DNA of 64,000 nt from Candidatus Carthagonibacter metallireducens (GCA_023554445.1 JAMJQQ010000119.1:1925-65924), one strand, 5' to 3'; shown: positions 11,370 through 22,023, counted from the stretch's first letter. Made by a program: numbers and translations. The notes: generated by a model from the sequence alone, not told the origin.

Positions 11370-11917
11370 TCAGGTATGCGGCGTGGTCGCGGACCCGGCA
11401 ACCAGCAGGGACGAGCATTCCGTGCAGAATCGCTCGCTCTTCAGGTCGACGTCTTCGACATAGGTGGAGGACGACATCACGCAGGATCTGTCCGGGCAAT
11501 GGACCAGCCCGAAGCCATGTCCGAGCTCATGTACGACTTCCTTGACCGCTCGATCGACCAGGAGTCGTTCGTCGGTGGGCAGACCATAGAACTCGGTGTG
11601 CAGACGCATCACAGACACGACGGCGGCCGGACCTCCCAGTTGGGCCTGCCCGAACACGAAGGTGAGCACGGGAATGAACAGATCCTCCGCCGTGATTCCG
11701 ACGATCCTGCCGCCCGAGGCGGGCAGATGGCGAAGCAGCTCCGCGAGCAGGAGCGTGGCGTGATATTGCTGCCGTTCGGGGGCATAGAAGGGCGCGAGAT
11801 CAATACCGAGGGGCTCGGCACGAACGAAATGGTCTGTCGCCGCGGCCACCCGACGGCGCAGTTCTTCCGACCACGTCGGCCGGAAGCTCCCCAGGTGCGC
11901 CAGCAGGATCTCCGGCT

Positions 11918-11921
<4 letters not shown>
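11370..11921 (-). CDS. Archaemetzincin (peptidase M54)
   Basis: Has HELGHGFGLVHCPDRSCVMS, the archaemetzincin HExxHxxGxxHC zinc plus Cys motif. It overlaps the RR gene stop by 4 nt. Confidence 0.75.
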
Positions 11922-13253
<1,332 letters not shown>

Positions 13254-13264
<11 letters not shown>

Positions 13265-14942
13265 CAGATCTCCTCGCGGCCGTACCGCTGCCGGCTGCGA
13301 CAGCGACCGATTCGAATTCCGGCCGGTAGGGCCGGGTGGGCTGCCTGGGCAGCCGCAGCGTGAAGGTGGTCCCCTTGCCGGGTGCCGAATCGACCAGAAT
13401 CTCTCCCCCATGCCGGCGAACGATTCCGAATACGACGGCCAGACCGAGCCCGACACCCTTGGTTTCGTTCTTCGTGCTGAAGAAGGGATCGAAGATGCGG
13501 TCCCTGACTTCGGGTGGAATGCCGGAGCCGATATCCGCTACGCCGAGTCGCACGAAGCGGTCGTCGGTCGGATCGGAACCCGTGGTCAGAGTGAGACTTC
13601 CCCCCTCCGGCATCGCCTCGATCGCGTTGATCATCAGCGCCAGCAGAGACTGGACGATCTGTTCGCCGTCGCAGACGACTTCGTCGTCCTCGAGGGCCAG
13701 GTCCGTCTGGAGCTCCACCTCGCTGAGCTGCATGTGATGGCCCATCAGGCTGATCGCATGATCGACCAGGGAATGAAGGTGCTCCGGGGCCAGTTCGTGC
13801 GTTCCTTCCCGCGCGTACGTGAGCAGGTCGCGCACGATGTTGCCGCAGCGGACCGACTCCGAACGGATCAGCTCGAGGTTCTCGAGCGTTCTCTCGCGGG
13901 CCTCACCCGGCGGCATCTCCCGCTCCACCTTGCGAGCCACCAGCCGCGAACAGGTAAGGATCCCGGAGAGCGGATTGTTCAGCTCGTGGGCGACGGTCGC
14001 CGCCATCTTGCCCAGTGAAGAGGTCTTTTCCACCTGCACCATCTGTTTGTGTATCGCAGCCAGTTCCTGCGTCTTGTCTCGTACCCTCTCGGCGAGAGTG
14101 TCGGACCAGTGCCTGAGTTCGTCGTTCGCCTGCTTCAGACTGCCGGCCATTCGATTGAAGGAGTCCGCCAGCTGTCCGAGCTCGTCGGTTCGTTCCTCGG
14201 GAATACGGATGTCGAGGTCGCCGGCCGCCAGCGCCTCCGTACCCTTGATCAACTGGCGAGTGGGCTGGTGCACACCACGGTGTACGATGAAGGCCAGGGC
14301 GGCTCCTAGCAGCAGGGCGATTGCCACTCCGATCGCGAGACTGGATCGCTCCGCCCGGAGCATCGCCGCATCCGTCTTGGCGAGGGACATCTGGACATCC
14401 AGTACGCCGAGCACCGTGTCATCCTGGTCATGCACGTGGCAGGCATCGGCACATCCCTGACGGTTCCGGATCGGCGTAATCAGTCGCAGTACTCGAAAGC
14501 CGGCTTCGTGCACGTGGATCTGGGAGAGATCCTCGATGCTGGGTGACGAAAGTGGGAGCTCCGTCTCATGGCAGGCGAAACACGCCTCCGCCTGCATGTC
14601 GACGCGGGTACCGAGCTCAGCCGAGTCTGAGGAGAACGCGACTTCTCCTCGCTTGTTGTAGATCCGGACTCCGACGACGTCCGGCCCCTCACCGAGGCTG
14701 CGAATCGCGTCGTTGATGTGCTGCCGGTTGTTCTCGGCCATCTCGGTGAGGAGGCTTCCCTCGAGGAAGGTGCTCGCCCGCTCCGCTCCGGAGAGCACCT
14801 CCTCCTGCACCACTCGCGTCCGAATCCAGTTGGCGATCTGGTGATTGCCGAGCAGAATCAGCAGTACGGCGCCGAGGAGCACGACGAAGAGGCGAGCGCT
14901 CAGGGACGAGCGGATTCTCGTGGGCCAGGACGAGGAGGCCAT
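13254..14942 (-). CDS. Sensor histidine kinase with a periplasmic sensor domain carrying CxxCH/CxxxCH motifs, then HAMP, HisKA and HATPase
   Basis: Two TM helices flank a roughly 170-aa periplasmic region containing EACFACHETE and GCADACHVHD. HAMP is followed by an H-box (VAHELNNPLSGI) and ATPase motifs. It is coupled to the RR by an 11-nt overlap. Confidence 0.85.
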
Positions 14943-15092
14943 GTGAGTCCTCTGTGTTTCGTAGGGGCCTGCCGCACCCGGGTCCGGTTGGCGCGGAGCG
15001 GGGCCCTCCGACGACCGCTCAGCGCAGCAGAATACGTGCCGAAGTCCAGCGGACGGGACTGACGCGGGAAGGTGCCTGCGTTTCCCTCGAGC

Positions 15093-15878
15093 TCAGAACA
15101 GGGCGTCGATCATGGCGGCGAAGCGGTCCGGTCCGAGTACTCTCTCGAGATCCAGCTGTGGCTCCCCTCCATCGGCCATGACGGCACCCAGCTGGAGGCG
15201 ATCCGAATCGAGCGCGCCGCGGATGTGACTCTTCAGGATTCGAAGCCTGCGCAGGTGCCAGATCAGCGCATCTTCTCCCCGGAACAGTCTCGGCACCTCG
15301 GAAGGCCGAACCGCCGCTCGGACGCGAAACAGCCAATTGTCGCGTCCATCCACGTGTCCCGACCCTCCGATCTCGTCCACCAGCGGTTCGTTGACCTCCG
15401 TAACGGTGCCTCCTACCGGAAGACGAATGGGGATCGCCCGCTCCGACCGAAGCAGCCAGCCGCACGTCTCGCCCTCTTCGAAGCTGACTCCGGTGCGAGG
15501 TGCGACGATTTCCTCGACGGGCTCCAGTATCCTCCAGACGCAGCCGACCAGGCCGACTTCGAGCTCGTTGGAATCGCCTGCTGGACGAGCCCACACACCG
15601 TCTCCTCCGTACCAACGACCGAGGTCCAGGCGACAGCCGGCCAGGAGTTGCGAGACAAACTGGCCCACTTCGGCCTCCAGACGCCGCTGAGTCTGGGACA
15701 GATTCGGACACCGCACCGCCGACTCATCGTCGATTGCGTGACCTCCGGAGAGGGCGTGATAGAGCTCACAGCTGTCACAATCGTATTCCCGGTCGCACGG
15801 ATGCATACCGAGCACCCCCGCCAGTGACCACACGCACGGGAGCTCCGAATTCGGATTCGCAGATTCGCTTCGATTCAT
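15093..15878 (-). CDS. GcvH-fold (glycine-cleavage-H-like) protein with an N-terminal Cys-rich region
   Basis: The C-terminal segment matches the GcvH pattern (VGLVGCVWRILEP...RLPVGGTVTEVNEPL...DGRDNWLFRVR) but lacks the lipoyl-Lys. The N-terminus has C-x5-C-x2-C (HPCDREYDCDSCELYH). It is paralogous to the 15930 and 18949 genes. Confidence 0.6.
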   Translation of the reverse strand: MNRSESANPNSELPCVWSLAGVLGMHPCDREYDCDSCELYHALSGGHAIDDESAVRCPNLSQTQRRLEAEVGQFVSQLLAGCRLDLGRWYGGDGVWARPAGDSNELEVGLVGCVWRILEPVEEIVAPRTGVSFEEGETCGWLLRSERAIPIRLPVGGTVTEVNEPLVDEIGGSGHVDGRDNWLFRVRAAVRPSEVPRLFRGEDALIWHLRRLRILKSHIRGALDSDRLQLGAVMADGGEPQLDLERVLGPDRFAAMIDALF

Positions 15879-15929
15879 CGGTCCCCCCTCGCCTGCTGGG
15901 ACGATCGGACGACTCAGCCGGTGCGCTTC

Positions 15930-16685
15930 TCAAGCCTTTACGTTCTCGTCTTCCGCGACATCCATCGGGGAGACGAGCAGGAAGCTGCGCACGATCTCCT
16001 CCCAGTCCTCGGGGGCGAGAGTTCGTGCCAGTCCAAATCGGGGCTCTCCTCCGTCGGCCAGTACGGCCCCGAGCGCGCTTTCCGGCGCGCTGACTGCGAG
16101 CCCCTGGAGCGACCGCTCCGCCATTTCCGCCCACGAGCGAGCCAGGCTGCCGGTGAGGAGGTTTCGACGCACAGGCTCGATGGAAGGAACACGCACCCTC
16201 ATCAACCAGCCATCGCCATACGGGTCTCGACTCGCCGTCGAGGGCTCGTCGATCACCCGATCATTGAGCTGAACCACCTCCCCGTCGACCGGCGAGACCA
16301 TCGGCAGTTCCCGCCCCCCGGCGGTAATCGTCCATGCCGGTCCGCCCGCACTCAGCCGTGTGCCTTCGGGCGGTAGCTGAATCCGGTCGGGCGGGCCGAT
16401 CAGACGGCGCGCAAAATCGTCCCAGCCGATCACGACCTCTCCGTCGCTTCCTGCCATGCGGGCCCAGGAGTGCCCCGGGTGAAAGAACACACCGTTGCCC
16501 GGAAGAGCGACCCCACGGAGAAGGCTTCTCCAGTCCGCCTCCCTCTCCCGATGTGACTCGGACACCGCAACTTTCGGCGCCCGAATGAGTTGCCAGGCGA
16601 CGGTGAGGAGCAGCAGGAAGCTGATGACGACGATGTATTCGATGCCCTTCGTTCCGAACAGCTCGGGCTGAACCATGGCGTACAT
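15930..16685 (-). CDS. Membrane-anchored GcvH-fold protein (no lipoyl-Lys)
   Basis: N-terminal TM helix. HSWARMAGSDGEVVIGWDDFARRLIG...PMVSPVDGEVVQLNDRV...DPYGDGWLMRVRV aligns with E. coli GcvH (HEW...VGIT.HAQ..LGD...P.SGE.V.VN...PY.GGW.FK.K). Confidence 0.65.
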   Translation of the reverse strand: MYAMVQPELFGTKGIEYIVVISFLLLLTVAWQLIRAPKVAVSESHREREADWRSLLRGVALPGNGVFFHPGHSWARMAGSDGEVVIGWDDFARRLIGPPDRIQLPPEGTRLSAGGPAWTITAGGRELPMVSPVDGEVVQLNDRVIDEPSTASRDPYGDGWLMRVRVPSIEPVRRNLLTGSLARSWAEMAERSLQGLAVSAPESALGAVLADGGEPRFGLARTLAPEDWEEIVRSFLLVSPMDVAEDENVKA

Positions 16686-16704
16686 GGCGAAGCGTCCTTT
16701 CCGT

Positions 16705-17964
16705 TCACGCCGCCGTGGCGGCAGAGGCGTCCGCGGGTCGTCCTTCCTGCGGCCGAACGTGGAAGTCCAGCACCGGCATCCGGTTGATGACCCATCGGAA
16801 CACCCAGATCTCGGCGGATATCACACCCAGCGTAACTACGATCTCCTGCCACGACGGTACGTATCGGACAGGCGCATTCCACTGGAACCCGATGACCGTG
16901 ACGTTCAGTCGATTGATGATGATCCCGACCAGCGTGAGAACCGCGGCCGATTTGATCCACCGCGTGTCCCTGCGACGAGCGCCGACCAAGAAGAGCACCG
17001 CCGGCAACGCGACGAGCCCGACGATTTCGAGGAGGTACCAGGCGCCCCAGCCCGTGCCCATCCATGCGGCCCTGCCCTGGTGCACGAAAGTGATCACCTG
17101 GACGCCGAGATACGCGAACATCGTCCCGGCACAGATGCGTGAGAGTCCGATCAGGATTCCATCGTGCCCCTCGCGCAACGGCTGGCCCAGCCGATCCCGA
17201 AACACCTTGTGGGTGATCGTTCCCTCGAAGATCACCATGGAGAGTCCGGCGAAGATGCTGGAGACCAGGAAGAGAATCGGGATGAACTCCGAGTACCAGA
17301 GGGGGTGAATCTTCGTCTCGGCCATCAGGTAGAGCGCTCCGAGCCCCGACTGGTGCAGGGTCGAAAGCGTGATACCCAGCACCACCGCACCCAGGGTCAG
17401 AGCGTGAAGGCGCTTTCGAAGCTTCGGCCAACCGGCCCATTCGGCGATCACCGGTGAGAACTCCACCAGCTCCGCCGTCATGTAGAGGAGGAAATGCCAG
17501 GCGACCAGGAATAGAACCGAGCTCACCCCGAAGGAATTGCCGATGATCGGGTTGATCACGTTCCATGGACGACCCAGGTCCAGGAGAAGGGCTCCGGCGT
17601 AGAAGACGTACGCGAGGAAGCCGTTGAGAACGGTCACCCGAACGATCGGCTCGTATTTCTCGAGGCGCAGAATGTAGACCATGAAGGTGATGACATAGGC
17701 GCCGCCCGCGAGAGCGACCCCTGTAACCACGTCGAATCCGATCCACAGCCCCCACGGAACATCCTGAGACAGATTCGTTATCGTGCCCAGTCCTCCCGCG
17801 AACCGGATCGTCAGGAGCACGATCGTCACCAGGATCAGGGCTCCCGTCACGATGTTGAACGGGGTCAGCACCGGCCCCCTGGGCTTGAGCTCACCGAGCA
17901 GGAAGCGACCGAATCCACGGATTCCGCCGGAAGGTCGTGTCTGGAGCGAAGTAATCGTCGCCAC
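16705..17964 (-). CDS. NrfD/PsrC-family polytopic membrane subunit (quinone-interacting anchor)
   Basis: 419-aa protein with about 10 TM segments and NrfD-family character. Its start abuts the FeS gene stop (17964/17966). Confidence 0.75.
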   Translation of the reverse strand: MATITSLQTRPSGGIRGFGRFLLGELKPRGPVLTPFNIVTGALILVTIVLLTIRFAGGLGTITNLSQDVPWGLWIGFDVVTGVALAGGAYVITFMVYILRLEKYEPIVRVTVLNGFLAYVFYAGALLLDLGRPWNVINPIIGNSFGVSSVLFLVAWHFLLYMTAELVEFSPVIAEWAGWPKLRKRLHALTLGAVVLGITLSTLHQSGLGALYLMAETKIHPLWYSEFIPILFLVSSIFAGLSMVIFEGTITHKVFRDRLGQPLREGHDGILIGLSRICAGTMFAYLGVQVITFVHQGRAAWMGTGWGAWYLLEIVGLVALPAVLFLVGARRRDTRWIKSAAVLTLVGIIINRLNVTVIGFQWNAPVRYVPSWQEIVVTLGVISAEIWVFRWVINRMPVLDFHVRPQEGRPADASAATAA

Positions 17965-17965
17965 G

Positions 17966-18862
17966 CTACACCTCCTCTCGCGTGTCGTCGCCCGAACGCC
18001 GTGTCGCCTCGCTGATCCCCAGAAGGAGAGGCGGTACGAGGGTGATCACGAAGGGAACCGCGTAGAGGAATTCTTTGGTGAGCGCCGGGACCGGCTCCAC
18101 GCCGACGTCCGATCGCAGTCCGATCTCCTCGAAGGGAACCGCGGAGAGGTAGAGCCAGCTCGTTCCACCGACTTCGTGCTCACCCCAGACTCGATGGACG
18201 TACTTGTCGGGCTCCGACCATATTCTCTTGTGGCCTTCCTCGAGCATCTCCGCCCGGGTTCCGAATTGTGTCGCCCCGGCCGGACAGCCCTCCACGCAGG
18301 CGGGGACTTCGCCCTCGTCCAGACGCGCGAAGCACATCTGACACTTCCTGATCCTGGGGTTCGCGCTGAAGTACTCGAACTTCGGCACGTCGAAGGGACA
18401 GGAGACCATGCAGTACCGGCACCCCATGCACTTGTCCGCTCGCCAGACCACAGGACCCTCAGAGGTCTTGTGCATGGCCTGAGTCAGGCAGGCCGAGGCA
18501 CAGGCCGGTGTCAGGCAGTGGAAGCACTGCGTCTTGACGCTGACTGTCCCCTTCGAGGTTTCGTACTGGTTCACGACGGTGAAGCGCGTGTCATCCGTCC
18601 GTCGCCGTGCGGAGAAGTCCACCTTCGGCTCAGGTTCCGGCAGATCGTTCTGGTTCGCGCAGGCGAGCTCGCACATGCGGCAACCCATGCACTTGGTCGT
18701 GTCCACGAGCACCGCCATGGGCTCGGCTGCCGGGTCGGTCGTCGCCTCCGGTAGAGATGTGGCCGCTCGTGCGACCTTCGAGTGCCCTCGCAGATCGCGG
18801 CCGACGGCCACTGATCCGCCCAGGACACACAACGACCGAACGACATCTCGTCTCTTCATCAC
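17966..18862 (-). CDS. Tat-exported four-cluster [4Fe-4S] ferredoxin subunit (NrfC/PsrB/HybA type)
   Basis: Twin-arginine signal (MMKRRDVVRSLCVLGGSVAV). Four Cys clusters: CMGCRMCELAC, CFHCLTPACASAC, CMGCRYCMVSCP, CQMC...CVEGCP. Confidence 0.8.
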   Translation of the reverse strand: MMKRRDVVRSLCVLGGSVAVGRDLRGHSKVARAATSLPEATTDPAAEPMAVLVDTTKCMGCRMCELACANQNDLPEPEPKVDFSARRRTDDTRFTVVNQYETSKGTVSVKTQCFHCLTPACASACLTQAMHKTSEGPVVWRADKCMGCRYCMVSCPFDVPKFEYFSANPRIRKCQMCFARLDEGEVPACVEGCPAGATQFGTRAEMLEEGHKRIWSEPDKYVHRVWGEHEVGGTSWLYLSAVPFEEIGLRSDVGVEPVPALTKEFLYAVPFVITLVPPLLLGISEATRRSGDDTREEV

Positions 18863-18948
18863 AGCCCCCTTATCGATCAGGGCGTAGCGGATCGAGGGCG
18901 GATGCCGGAATCAGGAGGAGCGTCCCGGATTCCGCCCGCATCCGAAGG

Positions 18949-19629
18949 TCAGGTGTGGAGAAAGCGGGCCTCGAATTCGGACCAGGCGTCGGCATCGAGT
19001 TCCGCCAGAGCGCCAACCGGTACCTCGCCTCCATCAGCGAGGGCCAGGCCCACCTCACCGTCGGCCAGGGCTCGCTGCAGGTATTCCCTGATTCTTCCGT
19101 AGCGGTCGCCTGCCCACTCCGTCGCAGGCGTTCCGATCATCCAGGAGGGCACGTCAAGCGCGAGGTCATCCGGCTGCACGCGGTACAACCAGGCACGATC
19201 GAGCGAATCGGCCTCATGGTCGGTCAGGCTCCCCGACGCAAATCGATTGCGTGCGGTGATCTTGCCACTGAGAGGTGCCCGGACCCGAGCTGACTTGTCG
19301 CCCGTACCTATTTCGAGGATCGGATCGCCGCGATCGAAGTGCTGGCCCGGCTCCGCGAGCGAGTACCGGGTCTGCTCCCCGACGAGGCCCTGGAGCATCG
19401 GGTGTACGCCGACTTCGACCGTTCCATCGGGAACGACGCGACTCCAGGTGAAGCCATTCTGGAGGAATATTCCCTCCGGTACCGATCCCACCCAATCCGT
19501 GAGCGGAGCCGGTCCCACACGAGCGCCGCCGGATTGCACCTCCAGCCGAGCGCGGCGAGGTCGCTCGATGAGGAGGTGATACCCTCCCAGCGCGACGACC
19601 ACGGTCATAAGAAAGGCTGCCGCAAGCAT
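18949..19629 (-). CDS. Membrane-anchored GcvH-fold protein (third paralog; keeps a Lys at the lipoyl position)
   Basis: N-terminal TM helix, then FTWSRVVPDGTVEVGVHPMLQGLVGE...ILEIGTGDKSARVRAPLSGKITARN...AWLYRV. The C-terminal LALADGGEVP motif is shared with the other two paralogs. Confidence 0.6.
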   Translation of the reverse strand: MLAAAFLMTVVVALGGYHLLIERPRRARLEVQSGGARVGPAPLTDWVGSVPEGIFLQNGFTWSRVVPDGTVEVGVHPMLQGLVGEQTRYSLAEPGQHFDRGDPILEIGTGDKSARVRAPLSGKITARNRFASGSLTDHEADSLDRAWLYRVQPDDLALDVPSWMIGTPATEWAGDRYGRIREYLQRALADGEVGLALADGGEVPVGALAELDADAWSEFEARFLHT

Positions 19630-20000
19630 GGTCTCCTCCCCTCTGATTCAATTCCGCCGGTCACCGCGCTCTTCGTCGTTTGGTCGCGCGGTCAACAGAT
19701 CCGACAGTTGCGGAGGTGAGTGGCAAGAGGGGGGCCGCACGGACAGAGTGTGCGGTGAGAGCTGGTAAGTCACCTACTGTTGGACCTTTACAATGCTCGA
19801 GATCGGCGGCGATGGGCAAGGACGTCAACAGGCTTTGTCGAATTATCCTACAGCCGGGTTGCCGCAATCCGTTCAAACTCGCCACGAAGCCCTTGAATTC
19901 AGCCACGCCCAGTTGTGGGATACTTCACCAGCCGTATGTGGAGGATTCCGACACCTGACAGGCAGGCCGGGCGACATGTCCGGGGAACCGAAACCGCCAC

Positions 20001-21290
20001 ATGCATGGCTGCCATCCCCTCTATCTGAGGACCATTGCGCGTTGCTGCCGGCAAGGCGCACTTTCGGCCGACACGACTCGGAGGCAAGCCGGACTTCCTT
20101 CTATCCGGTTACACGGGTTGACTGAGACGACGACCATACCGGAGCCGCGTGAACGTGGCCCCCTGGACCATCCCCTGGTTCGGGCGGCCCTGGTACTTCT
20201 GTTGCTCTACGTCTTTCTCGTCGGAGTCAACGGTCTCGGAGACGGATTCAAGTCGCTGGGAGCCGGGCTGCTCGACTCCTTCTTCCGTGCCACCGAGAAT
20301 CCCTTCATGGGGCTGATGGTCGGAGTTCTCGCAACGACCCTGGTGCAGAGCTCCTCTGTATCGACTTCCCTGATCGTTGGCCTCGTGGCGGCCCCGGCGA
20401 ATCCTCTCCCGCTGGCCAACGCCATCCCGATGGTCATGGGCGCCAACATCGGGACGACCGTGACGAACACCCTCGTCTCGATGGCTCACATGGGACGCCG
20501 TCAGGAATTCGAACGGGCATTCGCCGTGGCCACGTGCCACGACTTCTTCAACTTCCTGGCGGTAGCGATCTTCCTCCCGCTGGAGATGGCGACCGGCTAC
20601 CTGCAGAAGTCGGCGACCTGGCTGTCCGGGAAGCTGACGGGCATCGGGGGCGTCGAATACGACAGTCCGTTGAAGGGAGCTCTGAAGGCTACCGTCGCAC
20701 CCATCAAGGATGTGCTTCAGGCCATCCTGCCGACCGATCGCCTGGCGGCCGTGGCGCTGATTCTGGTCTCCGGCCTCCTGATTTACCTGGCCCTGATGCT
20801 GCTCGTGAAGACCATGCGCAGCTTCATGCAGGCCCGGGTAGAGACGATCGTGTCCCGTGGCCTGTACAAGGCGCCGGCCTTCGCGATCGTCGTCGGGATC
20901 GTGGTCACCGTCATGGTGCAGTCGAGCTCGATCACGACGTCGCTCCTCGTGCCCCTCGCTGGAGCCGGCCTGATCACCCTCGAGCAGGCCTTCCCGATCA
21001 CCATTGGCGCCAACATCGGTACGACCATCACGGCCGCTCTCGCGGCACTTGCGGCGACCGGCCCGAACGCGCGGTGGGGGATCACGATCGCCCTCGTTCA
21101 CTTCCTGTTCAACCTCTCGGCGACTCTCTTCATTTACCCGATTCCGAGGATCCGGGAGATCCCGCTGAACGCCGCGAGGAAGCTGGCGTCCATTGCGGTG
21201 GAATCGCGCAGGTGGGCGCTGATTTACGTGCTCGCATTGTTCTACGGAGTGCCGCTGCTGTTCGCGGGGCTCAATCACCTACTCAACTGA
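20001..21290 (+). CDS. Na+/phosphate cotransporter (PNaS/NptA family); true start probably later (TTG 20118)
   Basis: Has LGDGFKSLGAGLLDSFFRATENPFMGLMVGVLATTLVQSSSVSTSLIVGLVAA and an internal repeat with QSSSITTSLLVPLAGAG, the Na_Pi_cotrans signature. The first 40 aa of the ORF are non-hydrophobic junk. Confidence 0.8.
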   Translation: MHGCHPLYLRTIARCCRQGALSADTTRRQAGLPSIRLHGLTETTTIPEPRERGPLDHPLVRAALVLLLLYVFLVGVNGLGDGFKSLGAGLLDSFFRATENPFMGLMVGVLATTLVQSSSVSTSLIVGLVAAPANPLPLANAIPMVMGANIGTTVTNTLVSMAHMGRRQEFERAFAVATCHDFFNFLAVAIFLPLEMATGYLQKSATWLSGKLTGIGGVEYDSPLKGALKATVAPIKDVLQAILPTDRLAAVALILVSGLLIYLALMLLVKTMRSFMQARVETIVSRGLYKAPAFAIVVGIVVTVMVQSSSITTSLLVPLAGAGLITLEQAFPITIGANIGTTITAALAALAATGPNARWGITIALVHFLFNLSATLFIYPIPRIREIPLNAARKLASIAVESRRWALIYVLALFYGVPLLFAGLNHLLN

Positions 21291-21303
21291 AGCCGGGGAC
21301 AGC

Positions 21304-22023
21304 ATGCTGAAGGAACTGATCTCGCTGTTTCGATCCGACCAGCCGCTGCAGGAGATGGGAAAGAACTTCGCGGCGATGCTGAACCTGACGTACGAGATGA
21401 CGATACAGGCTGGCGAGATCTTCTTCGGTGGAGTGGTATCGCCCTCGGACAGCAACAGCCTGTACCAGCGCGATATCCAGGTGAACAAGCTGGAGCGCAG
21501 AATCCGCAAACAGGTGATCGCGCACCTTTCGCTCTCCGGCTCAACTCCCTCTCTCCCCTACTGCCTTCTGCTGGTCAGCCTCGTCAAGGATGTGGAGCGG
21601 ATCGGCGACTACGCGAAGAACCTCGCCGAAGTCAGGCAGTATCATCCGCTTCCGCTGCCCGACGACGAGTTCGTGGCTGAGTTGCAGGCCATCCGTGAGG
21701 GCGTCGAACAGTCGTTCGTCCAGAGCAGAGAGGTGTTCGTGGCGTCGGATCGGGAACGGGCGCTGGACCTGATCCGGGAGGGCCGAAGTCTGACACACCG
21801 GTGCGACATGCTCGTGGCGAGGGTCGCAGCGAGTGACTACGGAGCCCGCGACGCGACGGCGGTCGTCATGGGCGCTCGGTTCTACAAGCGGATCGCCGCG
21901 CACGTCCTGAACATTCTGTCGAGCGTAGTGATGCCTCTGCACAAGCTGGATTATTACGACGAGAAGGAGCTTCCGCCGGAATTCGCCGACCTCGAGGGAA
22001 CGGCTGACGACGAGGACGATTAG
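21304..22023 (+). CDS. PhoU-domain phosphate-transport regulator
   Basis: 239-aa protein with two PhoU-like repeats (DVERIGDYAKNLAE). It follows the Na/Pi transporter, as in NptA-PhoU pairs. Confidence 0.7.
   Translation: MLKELISLFRSDQPLQEMGKNFAAMLNLTYEMTIQAGEIFFGGVVSPSDSNSLYQRDIQVNKLERRIRKQVIAHLSLSGSTPSLPYCLLLVSLVKDVERIGDYAKNLAEVRQYHPLPLPDDEFVAELQAIREGVEQSFVQSREVFVASDRERALDLIREGRSLTHRCDMLVARVAASDYGARDATAVVMGARFYKRIAAHVLNILSSVVMPLHKLDYYDEKELPPEFADLEGTADDEDD

Follow-up and report, generated by a model that had tools for sequence, protein, structure and literature searches.

What is a quinone-linked membrane module for when it lies beside no catalytic subunit and is flanked instead by three relatives of the glycine-cleavage H protein (GcvH)? 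The question is raised by a group of genes at positions 15093-19629 of a 64,000-nucleotide stretch of DNA from Candidatus Carthagonibacter metallireducens (hereafter the window). A sequence-only reading had described these genes as an orphan NrfC/NrfD-type quinone-linked module accompanied by three GcvH-fold paralogs, a description that profile matches and gene order support. NrfD-type complexes play a central part in anaerobic respiration (Psr, Nrf, Hyb, Qrc, Dsr and alternative complex III (ACIII)), and we know of none with GcvH-fold subunits or a regulated cytoplasmic cap. On balance, and with confidence somewhat better than even, we take the genes to specify a respiratory membrane module of the Hmc/Nhc/Hyb type that is self-contained and under sigma-54 control, one that would move electrons between quinone and periplasmic cytochromes and in which the GcvH-like proteins would be docking or regulatory subunits.

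The five genes are co-directional, as had been claimed, all on the minus strand. We refer to them as g1 (18949..19629, 226 aa), g2 (17966..18862, 298 aa), g3 (16705..17964, 419 aa), g4 (15930..16685, 251 aa) and g5 (15093..15878, 261 aa). The sequence-only reading had placed a sensor kinase and a sigma-54 activator immediately downstream, which holds, but it missed both a Peptidase_M54 gene at 11370-11921 and the putative sigma-54 promoters; the unit thus defined is a tightly spaced set of eight minus-strand genes covering 11370-19737, including a promoter-like site. The absence of a catalytic subunit extends beyond the immediate locus: none is encoded elsewhere in the window, nor is a cytochrome, and no hydrogenase, molybdoenzyme or cytochrome c gene is present in the 64 kb apart from the haem motifs of the kinase. 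Matches to the window sequence come from Gemmatimonadota metagenome-assembled genomes (MAGs) that bear the label “marine benthic group” (GCA_023553945 and relatives).

The redox core consists of g2 and g3. The product of g2 had been read as a four-cluster ferredoxin exported by twin-arginine translocation (Tat), and its features agree: it matches Pfam Fer4_11 (6e-19) and has an RRDVV motif, 16 cysteines in four [4Fe-4S]-type groups and a C-terminal transmembrane (TM) helix at aa 265-283. All 16 cysteines are conserved in 36 of 36 orthologs and the twin-arginine motif in 34 of them; the closest sequence in the PDB is FdnH (6.8e-34). Given a Tat signal and C-tail like those of HybA and HmcB (PMC10924467), the predicted protein is periplasmic. 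Directly downstream lies g3, whose identification as an NrfD membrane anchor was likewise borne out (Pfam NrfD, 3.4e-15); it is of the HmcC/HybB type, with ∼10 TM helices and no cofactor motifs, and a PDB sequence search with it gave no match. Against NCBIfam, g2 scores 317 bits with HmcB (cut-off 420) and 206 bits with HybA (cut-off 263), and g3 scores 398 bits with HmcC (cut-off 550) and 268 bits with HybB (cut-off 450). Because the best matches are to HmcB/HmcC, followed by HybA/HybB, and all fall below the equivalog cut-offs, the pair forms a distinct clade of the Hmc/Hyb type.

Residues of g3 speak to its likely chemistry. When g3-family proteins are aligned to E. coli HybB, R89, Y99, E148 and H184 are kept in 41 of 41 members, the window protein included, as are D109, E291 and R329; E155, K198 and H200 are kept in at least 38. 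In E. coli, replacement of HybB R89, Y99, E148 or H184 lowers H2 oxidation (PMC8076601). The g2/g3 pair is, on these grounds, probably competent in quinone chemistry. The same two-gene core, a Tat-dependent, C-tail-anchored ferredoxin together with a quinol oxidase resembling HybB, has been described more widely (Gallego-Parrilla et al. 2024, PMC10924467), frequently alongside periplasmic c-type cytochromes. The window has the twin-arginine motif, the C-terminal TM helix, the four cysteine groups and the NrfD gene directly downstream; it has no adjoining gene for a periplasmic c-type cytochrome, which in related loci is present or fused.

Conservation of the gene neighbourhood, suggested earlier as a check on the unit, proved extensive. 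Loci were recovered by scanning one genome per species with a g4 profile, followed by local phmmer searches; some 55 of them, from many phyla, have one to three GcvH-like genes beside orthologs of g2 and g3. Carriers belong to Gemmatimonadota, Desulfobacterota and other “delta” lineages, Myxococcota, Acidobacteriota, Bacteroidota, Ignavibacteriota/Chlorobiota, Calditrichota, Planctomycetota and Eisenbacteria, and include cultured Anaeromyxobacter (PSR-1, A. terrae) and Maribellus luteus (Bacteroidota). Searched against 1.84 billion representatives, the g4 profile matches 867 clusters at 50% identity with E<=1e-30. Three paralog types – the g4 type with TKGxEY, a TM-only type and a type with an N-terminal four-cysteine motif (Cys4) – occur together in 13 loci of several phyla, and the median gap between the NrfD gene and the next GcvH-like gene is 18.5 nt. 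The kinase and sigma-54 activator accompany the module in ∼42 loci; the co-occurrence of kinase, activator and M54 protease spans at least eight phyla.

These other genomes also point to the periplasmic partner. We took a Pfam census of 138 non-module neighbours lying within 700 nt of modules and listed the 25 most frequent families. Peptidase_M54 (19), Cytochrome_C7 (12), Cytochrom_CIII (10) and Cytochrom_c3_2 (8) are among them; no hydrogenase or molybdopterin family is. Cytochromes with a signal peptide and three to four haems are encoded inside the module in at least nine loci, one of them passing the cut-off for a c7 triheme domain and weakly resembling QrcA. Two g4-type proteins (P0171 and P0201) begin with a signal peptide and a multihaem cytochrome domain, fused directly to the FATKGxEY motif and TM helix that follow, and the gene for P0171 directly follows an NrfD ortholog 64% identical to g3. 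Since cytochromes are found both inside modules and fused to the g4-type protein, the partner is most likely a small multihaem cytochrome c. A larger open reading frame (ORF), truncated at the contig end, has 16 CxxCH motifs and is found immediately upstream of a g1 ortholog in an uncultured Gemmatimonadaceae MAG (L013, 8-1381), an arrangement reminiscent of Hmc.

The same data bear on another explanation, namely that g2 and g3 are the HybA/HybB-type anchor of a group 1c periplasmic [NiFe] hydrogenase encoded elsewhere in the genome and that the GcvH-like genes are accessory or unrelated. In its favour, NCBIfam ranks HybA (206 bits) and HybB (268 bits) second, the HybB residues with tested function are kept, and sediment Palauibacterales, the apparent order of these MAGs, are reported to carry group 1c and 1f hydrogenases (PMC10469786). 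However, the scores lie under the Hyb cut-offs and those for Hmc are higher; across the ∼55 neighbourhoods the listed families contain no hydrogenase, whereas c7 and c3 cytochromes recur and can be fused to g4; and the close coupling between the GcvH-like genes and the NrfD gene holds from phylum to phylum. We consider a hydrogenase anchor improbable.

What, then, are the flanking proteins? Pfam GCV_H scores of 35.1, 61.2 and 22.6 bits for g1, g4 and g5 (cut-off 22.2; E-value 1.4e-8 for g1) uphold their assignment to the GcvH fold. They had been described as carrying this fold at the C-terminus; it is in fact central, and is followed in all three paralog types by an extension of ∼70 aa in which a DGG motif (LADGGEP in the window) is invariant. 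As had been read, two of the three have an N-terminal membrane anchor, one TM helix each. In g1 the helix (aa 3-21) is followed by RPRRAR, the GcvH-like domain and the DGG extension. In g4 a short, predicted periplasmic N-terminus with an invariant TKGIEY precedes the helix, the GcvH-like domain and the extension, while g5 has no TM helix and is a soluble paralog in which the Cys4 motif precedes the same two parts. None of the three passes as GcvH itself, with 23-59 bits against NCBIfam equivalog cut-offs of 115-117, and the window gene list contains neither gcvT nor gcvP (T or P protein).

The lipoyl-lysine was said to be lost from two paralogs and retained in g1, at GDKSA. The loss stands; the retention does not. 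At the alignment column of the E. coli GcvH lipoyl-lysine g1 has D, g4 has G and g5 has E. The lysine of GDKSA is one residue out of register, at +1, a position at which K and R alternate in 15 g1-type orthologs and which is Arg in the closest relative of g1, a protein of locus L012 that is 56% identical. The GcvH-like domain has no conserved lysine in the g4 family (35 sequences) or the g5 family (27 sequences). Because the lipoylation column is without a conserved lysine in all three families, none of the three paralogs is likely to be a lipoyl carrier.

This result bears directly on the mechanism first proposed for the locus, a lipoate-dependent sulfur or thiol relay in which carriers akin to GcvH or LbpA feed a membrane module like those of Psr, Soe or Ttr. 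The GcvH fold is genuine, one paralog does have a lysine near the hairpin tip, and known LbpA proteins work with sHdr sulfur oxidation (PMC6067878), all of which speaks for the relay. Set against this are the missing lysine, which in g1 alternates with Arg, and the recurrence of cytochrome partners. Furthermore, the families listed for the window and the 25 commonest families of the neighbourhoods include no lipoate ligase, sHdr, molybdopterin or sulfurtransferase, and the compartments differ, the GcvH-like domains being predicted to be cytoplasmic (see below) and the Fe-S subunit periplasmic. We rejected the relay, to which we attach very little probability indeed.

The soluble paralog g5 carries a feature of its own. 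A C-x5-C-x2-C motif had been pointed out here; it is real, and part of a longer pattern, C15-x12-C28-x5-C34-x2-C37, that is kept across phyla. Three of the cysteines (C28, C34 and C37) never vary, and C15 hardly does, in Gemmatimonadota, Calditrichota, Bacteroidota, Eisenbacteria and delta lineages, which makes the motif a candidate metal or Fe-S site. Its conservation across phyla supports the 261-aa start of g5; in some public assemblies the gene is annotated as a 191-aa product that starts past the motif (L001 12297-12872; L003 9949-10524). A second, unrelated cysteine-rich N-terminus (CPFLE-x8/10-C-K-A-...-C-...-C, sometimes duplicated) takes the place of Cys4 in delta-type soluble paralogs (L020, L023, L025, L026, L031, L039 and L045). 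A Pfam search of the cysteine-rich N-termini, those of the CPFLE type included, returned no family match.

On which side of the membrane do the GcvH-like domains lie? Both charge bias and fusions place those of the g1, g4 and g5 types in the cytoplasm. The flanks of the TM helix follow the positive-inside pattern in the g4 family, with means of 0.8 K/R and 2.0 D/E on the N-terminal side and 2.8 K/R and 1.0 D/E on the C-terminal side, and in g1, where the helix leads into RPRRAR. Three kinds of fusion agree with this placement. The cytochrome c fusions imply a periplasmic N-terminus for g4-type proteins. In Bacteroidota, g1-type proteins consist of a signal peptide, a periplasmic PstS-like (PBP_like_2) domain of ∼300 aa, a TM helix, RKRR and the GcvH-like domain, in that order (e.g., L084 6879-8546). 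Finally, P0192, a protein without a TM helix, joins a receiver domain to a GcvH-like domain, and its gene lies within a module (L093) in which M54, activator and kinase genes are present too. We therefore regard the GcvH-like domains as cytoplasmic because they are fused, in different proteins, to a periplasmic cytochrome c, a periplasmic PstS-like domain and a receiver domain.

The remaining genes of the set suggest how the module is controlled. The sensor histidine kinase (13254..14942, minus strand) comprises TM1, a periplasmic domain of ∼170 aa, TM2, HAMP, HisKA and HATPase (Pfam). The CFACH (aa 121-125) and CADACH (aa 164-169) motifs do lie in the periplasmic domain, as had been noted, between the two TM helices, and the gene for the sigma-54 activator does follow. 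A CxxCH and a C-x3/4-CH motif ∼43 residues apart occur in 43 of 46 kinase orthologs. The kinase weakly matches the profile of the haem-containing Mcp40H-20 sensor; a PDB sequence search with the sensor domain returned nothing useful. The paired motifs point to a di-haem c sensor. The response regulator (11918..13264, minus strand) matches Sigma54_activat (1.9e-70) and Response_reg (2.6e-33) and has the receiver, AAA+ sigma-54 interaction and Fis-type helix-turn-helix domains of a sigma-54-dependent activator, while -24/-12 promoter-like sites lie upstream, as in a sigma-54 two-component system.

These sites were sought by scanning for GG-N10-GC, with scores out of 11. One, CGGCCCCCCTCTTGCC (19722..19737, minus strand), lies 108 nt upstream of g1 and aligns with TGGCATCGCCCTTGCC of L012, whose intergenic region has otherwise diverged. 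The other, CGGCACGTATTCTGCT (15026..15041, minus strand), lies 99 nt upstream of the kinase gene, scores 9 and is conserved in L012 (CGGCACGCATTCTGCT) and L044. Many loci have sigma-54-type sites upstream of their first module gene, an enrichment over the background rate of 0.076 per kb. A scan of the region gave no sigma-70-like promoter, although we rate the sigma-70 and terminator scans as uninformative. An inverted-repeat search for an activator site upstream of g1 returned only a palindrome downstream of the promoter: TTGACCGCGCGACCAA (19680-19695, minus strand), between the putative sigma-54 promoter and the start codon of g1. Farther upstream of this palindrome, a 9-mer, AATTCGACA, is kept between the window and L012.

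The eighth gene (11370..11921, minus strand) encodes an archaemetzincin-family Zn metalloprotease of 183 aa (Peptidase_M54, Pfam PF07998), and its start overlaps the stop of the regulator gene by 4 nt. The protein scores 157 bits with NCBIfam archmetzin (cut-off 145), matches PDB entry 2x7m (1.6e-30) and contains HELGHGFGLVH-C-x4-C-x-M-x16-C-xx-C, with x16 where the archaemetzincin consensus, HEXXHXXGXXHCX4CXMX17CXXC (PMC3427221), has x17. A Peptidase_M54 gene adjoins the activator in 34 of 42 loci; six of the eight loci without one stop at the edge of a contig. To our knowledge the biology of bacterial archaemetzincins is essentially unknown; here they have a fixed genetic context, one open to study in the cultured carriers Maribellus luteus and Anaeromyxobacter.

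Put together, the favoured reading of a sigma-54-regulated respiratory module would work as follows. The ferredoxin g2, which sits on the periplasmic face of the cofactor-less g3, would shuttle electrons between the quinone pool and the periplasm's small multihaem cytochromes c, which in this genome would have to be encoded elsewhere. The GcvH-like proteins would serve as cytoplasmic docking or regulatory subunits on the NrfD protein rather than as cofactor carriers. The putative di-haem kinase would read the redox state of the periplasm and, via the sigma-54 activator, switch the operon on from the -24/-12 promoters, and the co-transcribed archaemetzincin would process or control some component of the system.

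Several points weigh against this scheme. The window itself has no cytochrome c gene, such that the redox partner is here inferred from other genomes, and g2 and g3 lie under the equivalog cut-offs for Hmc as well as Hyb. Taken alone, the promoter-like site of g1 is a weak match (8/11). The Cys4-bearing N-terminus of g5 is modelled with low confidence by AlphaFold2 (AF2). NrfD proteins have no redox cofactor, and because of this a cytoplasmic Cys4 site has no obvious path to the periplasmic clusters. The role given to the GcvH-like proteins rests only on gene order, fusions and topology. Lastly, a few genomes have g4-type GcvH-like TM proteins with no adjoining Fe-S/NrfD genes (L028, L039, L047 and L064); their neighbours in these stand-alone loci are unrelated housekeeping genes.

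If not carriers, what might the GcvH-like proteins do? The constant part of these proteins, the GcvH-like domain with its DGG extension, is preceded by N-terminal inputs that vary: no more than a TM helix, the Cys4 motif, a receiver domain, or a cytochrome or binding domain in the periplasm. An adaptor or effector fits better than a carrier because a constant unit is combined with such varied inputs (the CPFLE type included), and because one protein of 1391 aa (P0222; L094 3234-7409) fuses three GCV_H domains to GlcD-like and HdrD/GlpC-like modules, namely FAD_binding_4/FAD-oxidase_C, an Fe-S dicluster and two CCG domains. The gene for P0222 adjoins those for a UbiA prenyltransferase and a PAS/GAF kinase. 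It is possible, though we put it forward only tentatively and rate it well below even, that the lysine-less GcvH-DGG unit is a previously unrecognised cytoplasmic adaptor or effector of NrfD complexes with interchangeable inputs, maybe matured or switched by the archaemetzincin, perhaps through cleavage at an exposed DGG loop. The motif falls in low-confidence, probably flexible loops in both predicted models. Were an adaptor of this kind switched by the archaemetzincin, it would be the first layer of post-translational control described for any NrfD complex, and bacterial archaemetzincins would gain a first physiological role.

Alternatively, the module could be mainly a transmembrane device for redox or ligand signalling and not an energy-conserving enzyme: the NrfCD pair would report the redox state of quinone or periplasm, the GcvH-DGG unit would relay the signal in the cytoplasm and the archaemetzincin would carry out regulated proteolysis, for example at the DGG loop. 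The unit is indeed paired with sensor-like inputs (the receiver of P0192, the PstS-like domain in Bacteroidota, cytochrome c and the cysteine-rich motifs), the kinase, activator and M54 protease co-occur almost universally, and the DGG motif lies in probably flexible loops. Yet the full set of HybB quinone and proton-coupling residues in g3 and all four clusters in g2 fit a working electron-transfer enzyme; the kinase has a predicted haem sensor domain of its own and needs no further sensor; and cleavage at the DGG loop is a proposal only. A purely signalling role for the cytoplasmic half is a serious alternative, but as an account of the whole module we think signalling unlikely.

How far, finally, does the module depart from known systems? 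Its nearest counterpart is Hmc of Desulfovibrio (HmcABCDEF; also Nhc and Ohc), which has the same tail-anchored periplasmic four-cluster ferredoxin and HybB-like NrfD protein, provides the best NCBIfam matches (HmcB/HmcC) and has multihaem cytochromes c as periplasmic partners, as do related loci of the present module, that with the 16-CxxCH ORF included. In contrast to Hmc, the window is without HmcA and without HmcD/E/F (cytochrome b and an HdrD-like protein), and L013 alone has an adjoining 16-CxxCH ORF; it has instead three lysine-less GcvH-fold proteins, predicted to be cytoplasmic, and, where Hmc has Rrf1/Rrf2, a putative di-haem kinase, a sigma-54 activator and an archaemetzincin. E. 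coli hydrogenase-2 has the same subunit types in HybA/HybB, with HybB R89/Y99/E148/H184 kept here, but the present module has extra cytoplasmic subunits and no adjoining hydrogenase genes, either in the window or among the listed neighbour families. The tail-anchored ferredoxin/HybB-like modules of PMC10924467 share the core; their flanking genes are reported not to be conserved and GcvH-like proteins are not mentioned, whereas the flanks here (GcvH-like paralogs, kinase, sigma-54 activator and M54 protease) are strongly conserved.

The GcvH-like proteins are equally distinct from GcvH, LbpA (sHdr) and GcvH-L: they are without the lipoyl-lysine, are membrane-anchored or Cys4-bearing, have the extra DGG extension, and do not have gcvT/gcvP, sHdr, lipoate ligase or macrodomain/SirTM genes as neighbours. 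A functional analogy, and no more than that, may be drawn with the barrel-sandwich hybrid domains of NqrA and of the RnfC N-terminus, likewise biotinyl/lipoyl-like barrels that have no cofactor and lie on the cytoplasmic side of membrane redox complexes. The sequence-only reading knew of no characterised example of the combination, and the literature agrees: a full-text search for GcvH with NrfD, Hmc, polysulfide reductase or sigma-54 found nothing relevant and no published description, “GcvH-like” in the literature searched denoted GcvH-L and LbpA only, and a review of NrfD proteins (PMC8076601) does not mention glycine cleavage proteins. Thus, while the respiratory core is familiar, the conserved cytoplasmic GcvH-fold subunits together with the cassette of putative di-haem kinase, sigma-54 activator and archaemetzincin are apparently undescribed and without precedent. 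The module is widespread in sediment and soil phyla, as the 867 clusters attest, and probably feeds or drains periplasmic multihaem cytochromes; it bears in this way on extracellular or cytochrome-based electron transfer in poorly studied lineages. It would also be a case in which the fold of a classic swinging-arm carrier has been reused without its cofactor.

Two further observations concern neighbouring genes. In the module from which P0192 comes (L093 240-10298), genes for MTHFR, DUF5981 (PF12225), a small Fer4_8/17 protein and a cytochrome c3 stand between the GcvH-like genes and those for the M54 protease, activator and kinase. Divergently upstream of the module, the window (20001-22023, plus strand) and the Gemmatimonadota relatives L012, L044 and L056 have genes for a Na/Pi cotransporter and PhoU, and in L011 a PBP_like_2 gene (1167-1991) adjoins that of the kinase; from these neighbours and the PstS-like domain of the g1-type proteins in Bacteroidota, a link between the module and phosphate or another oxyanion is possible.

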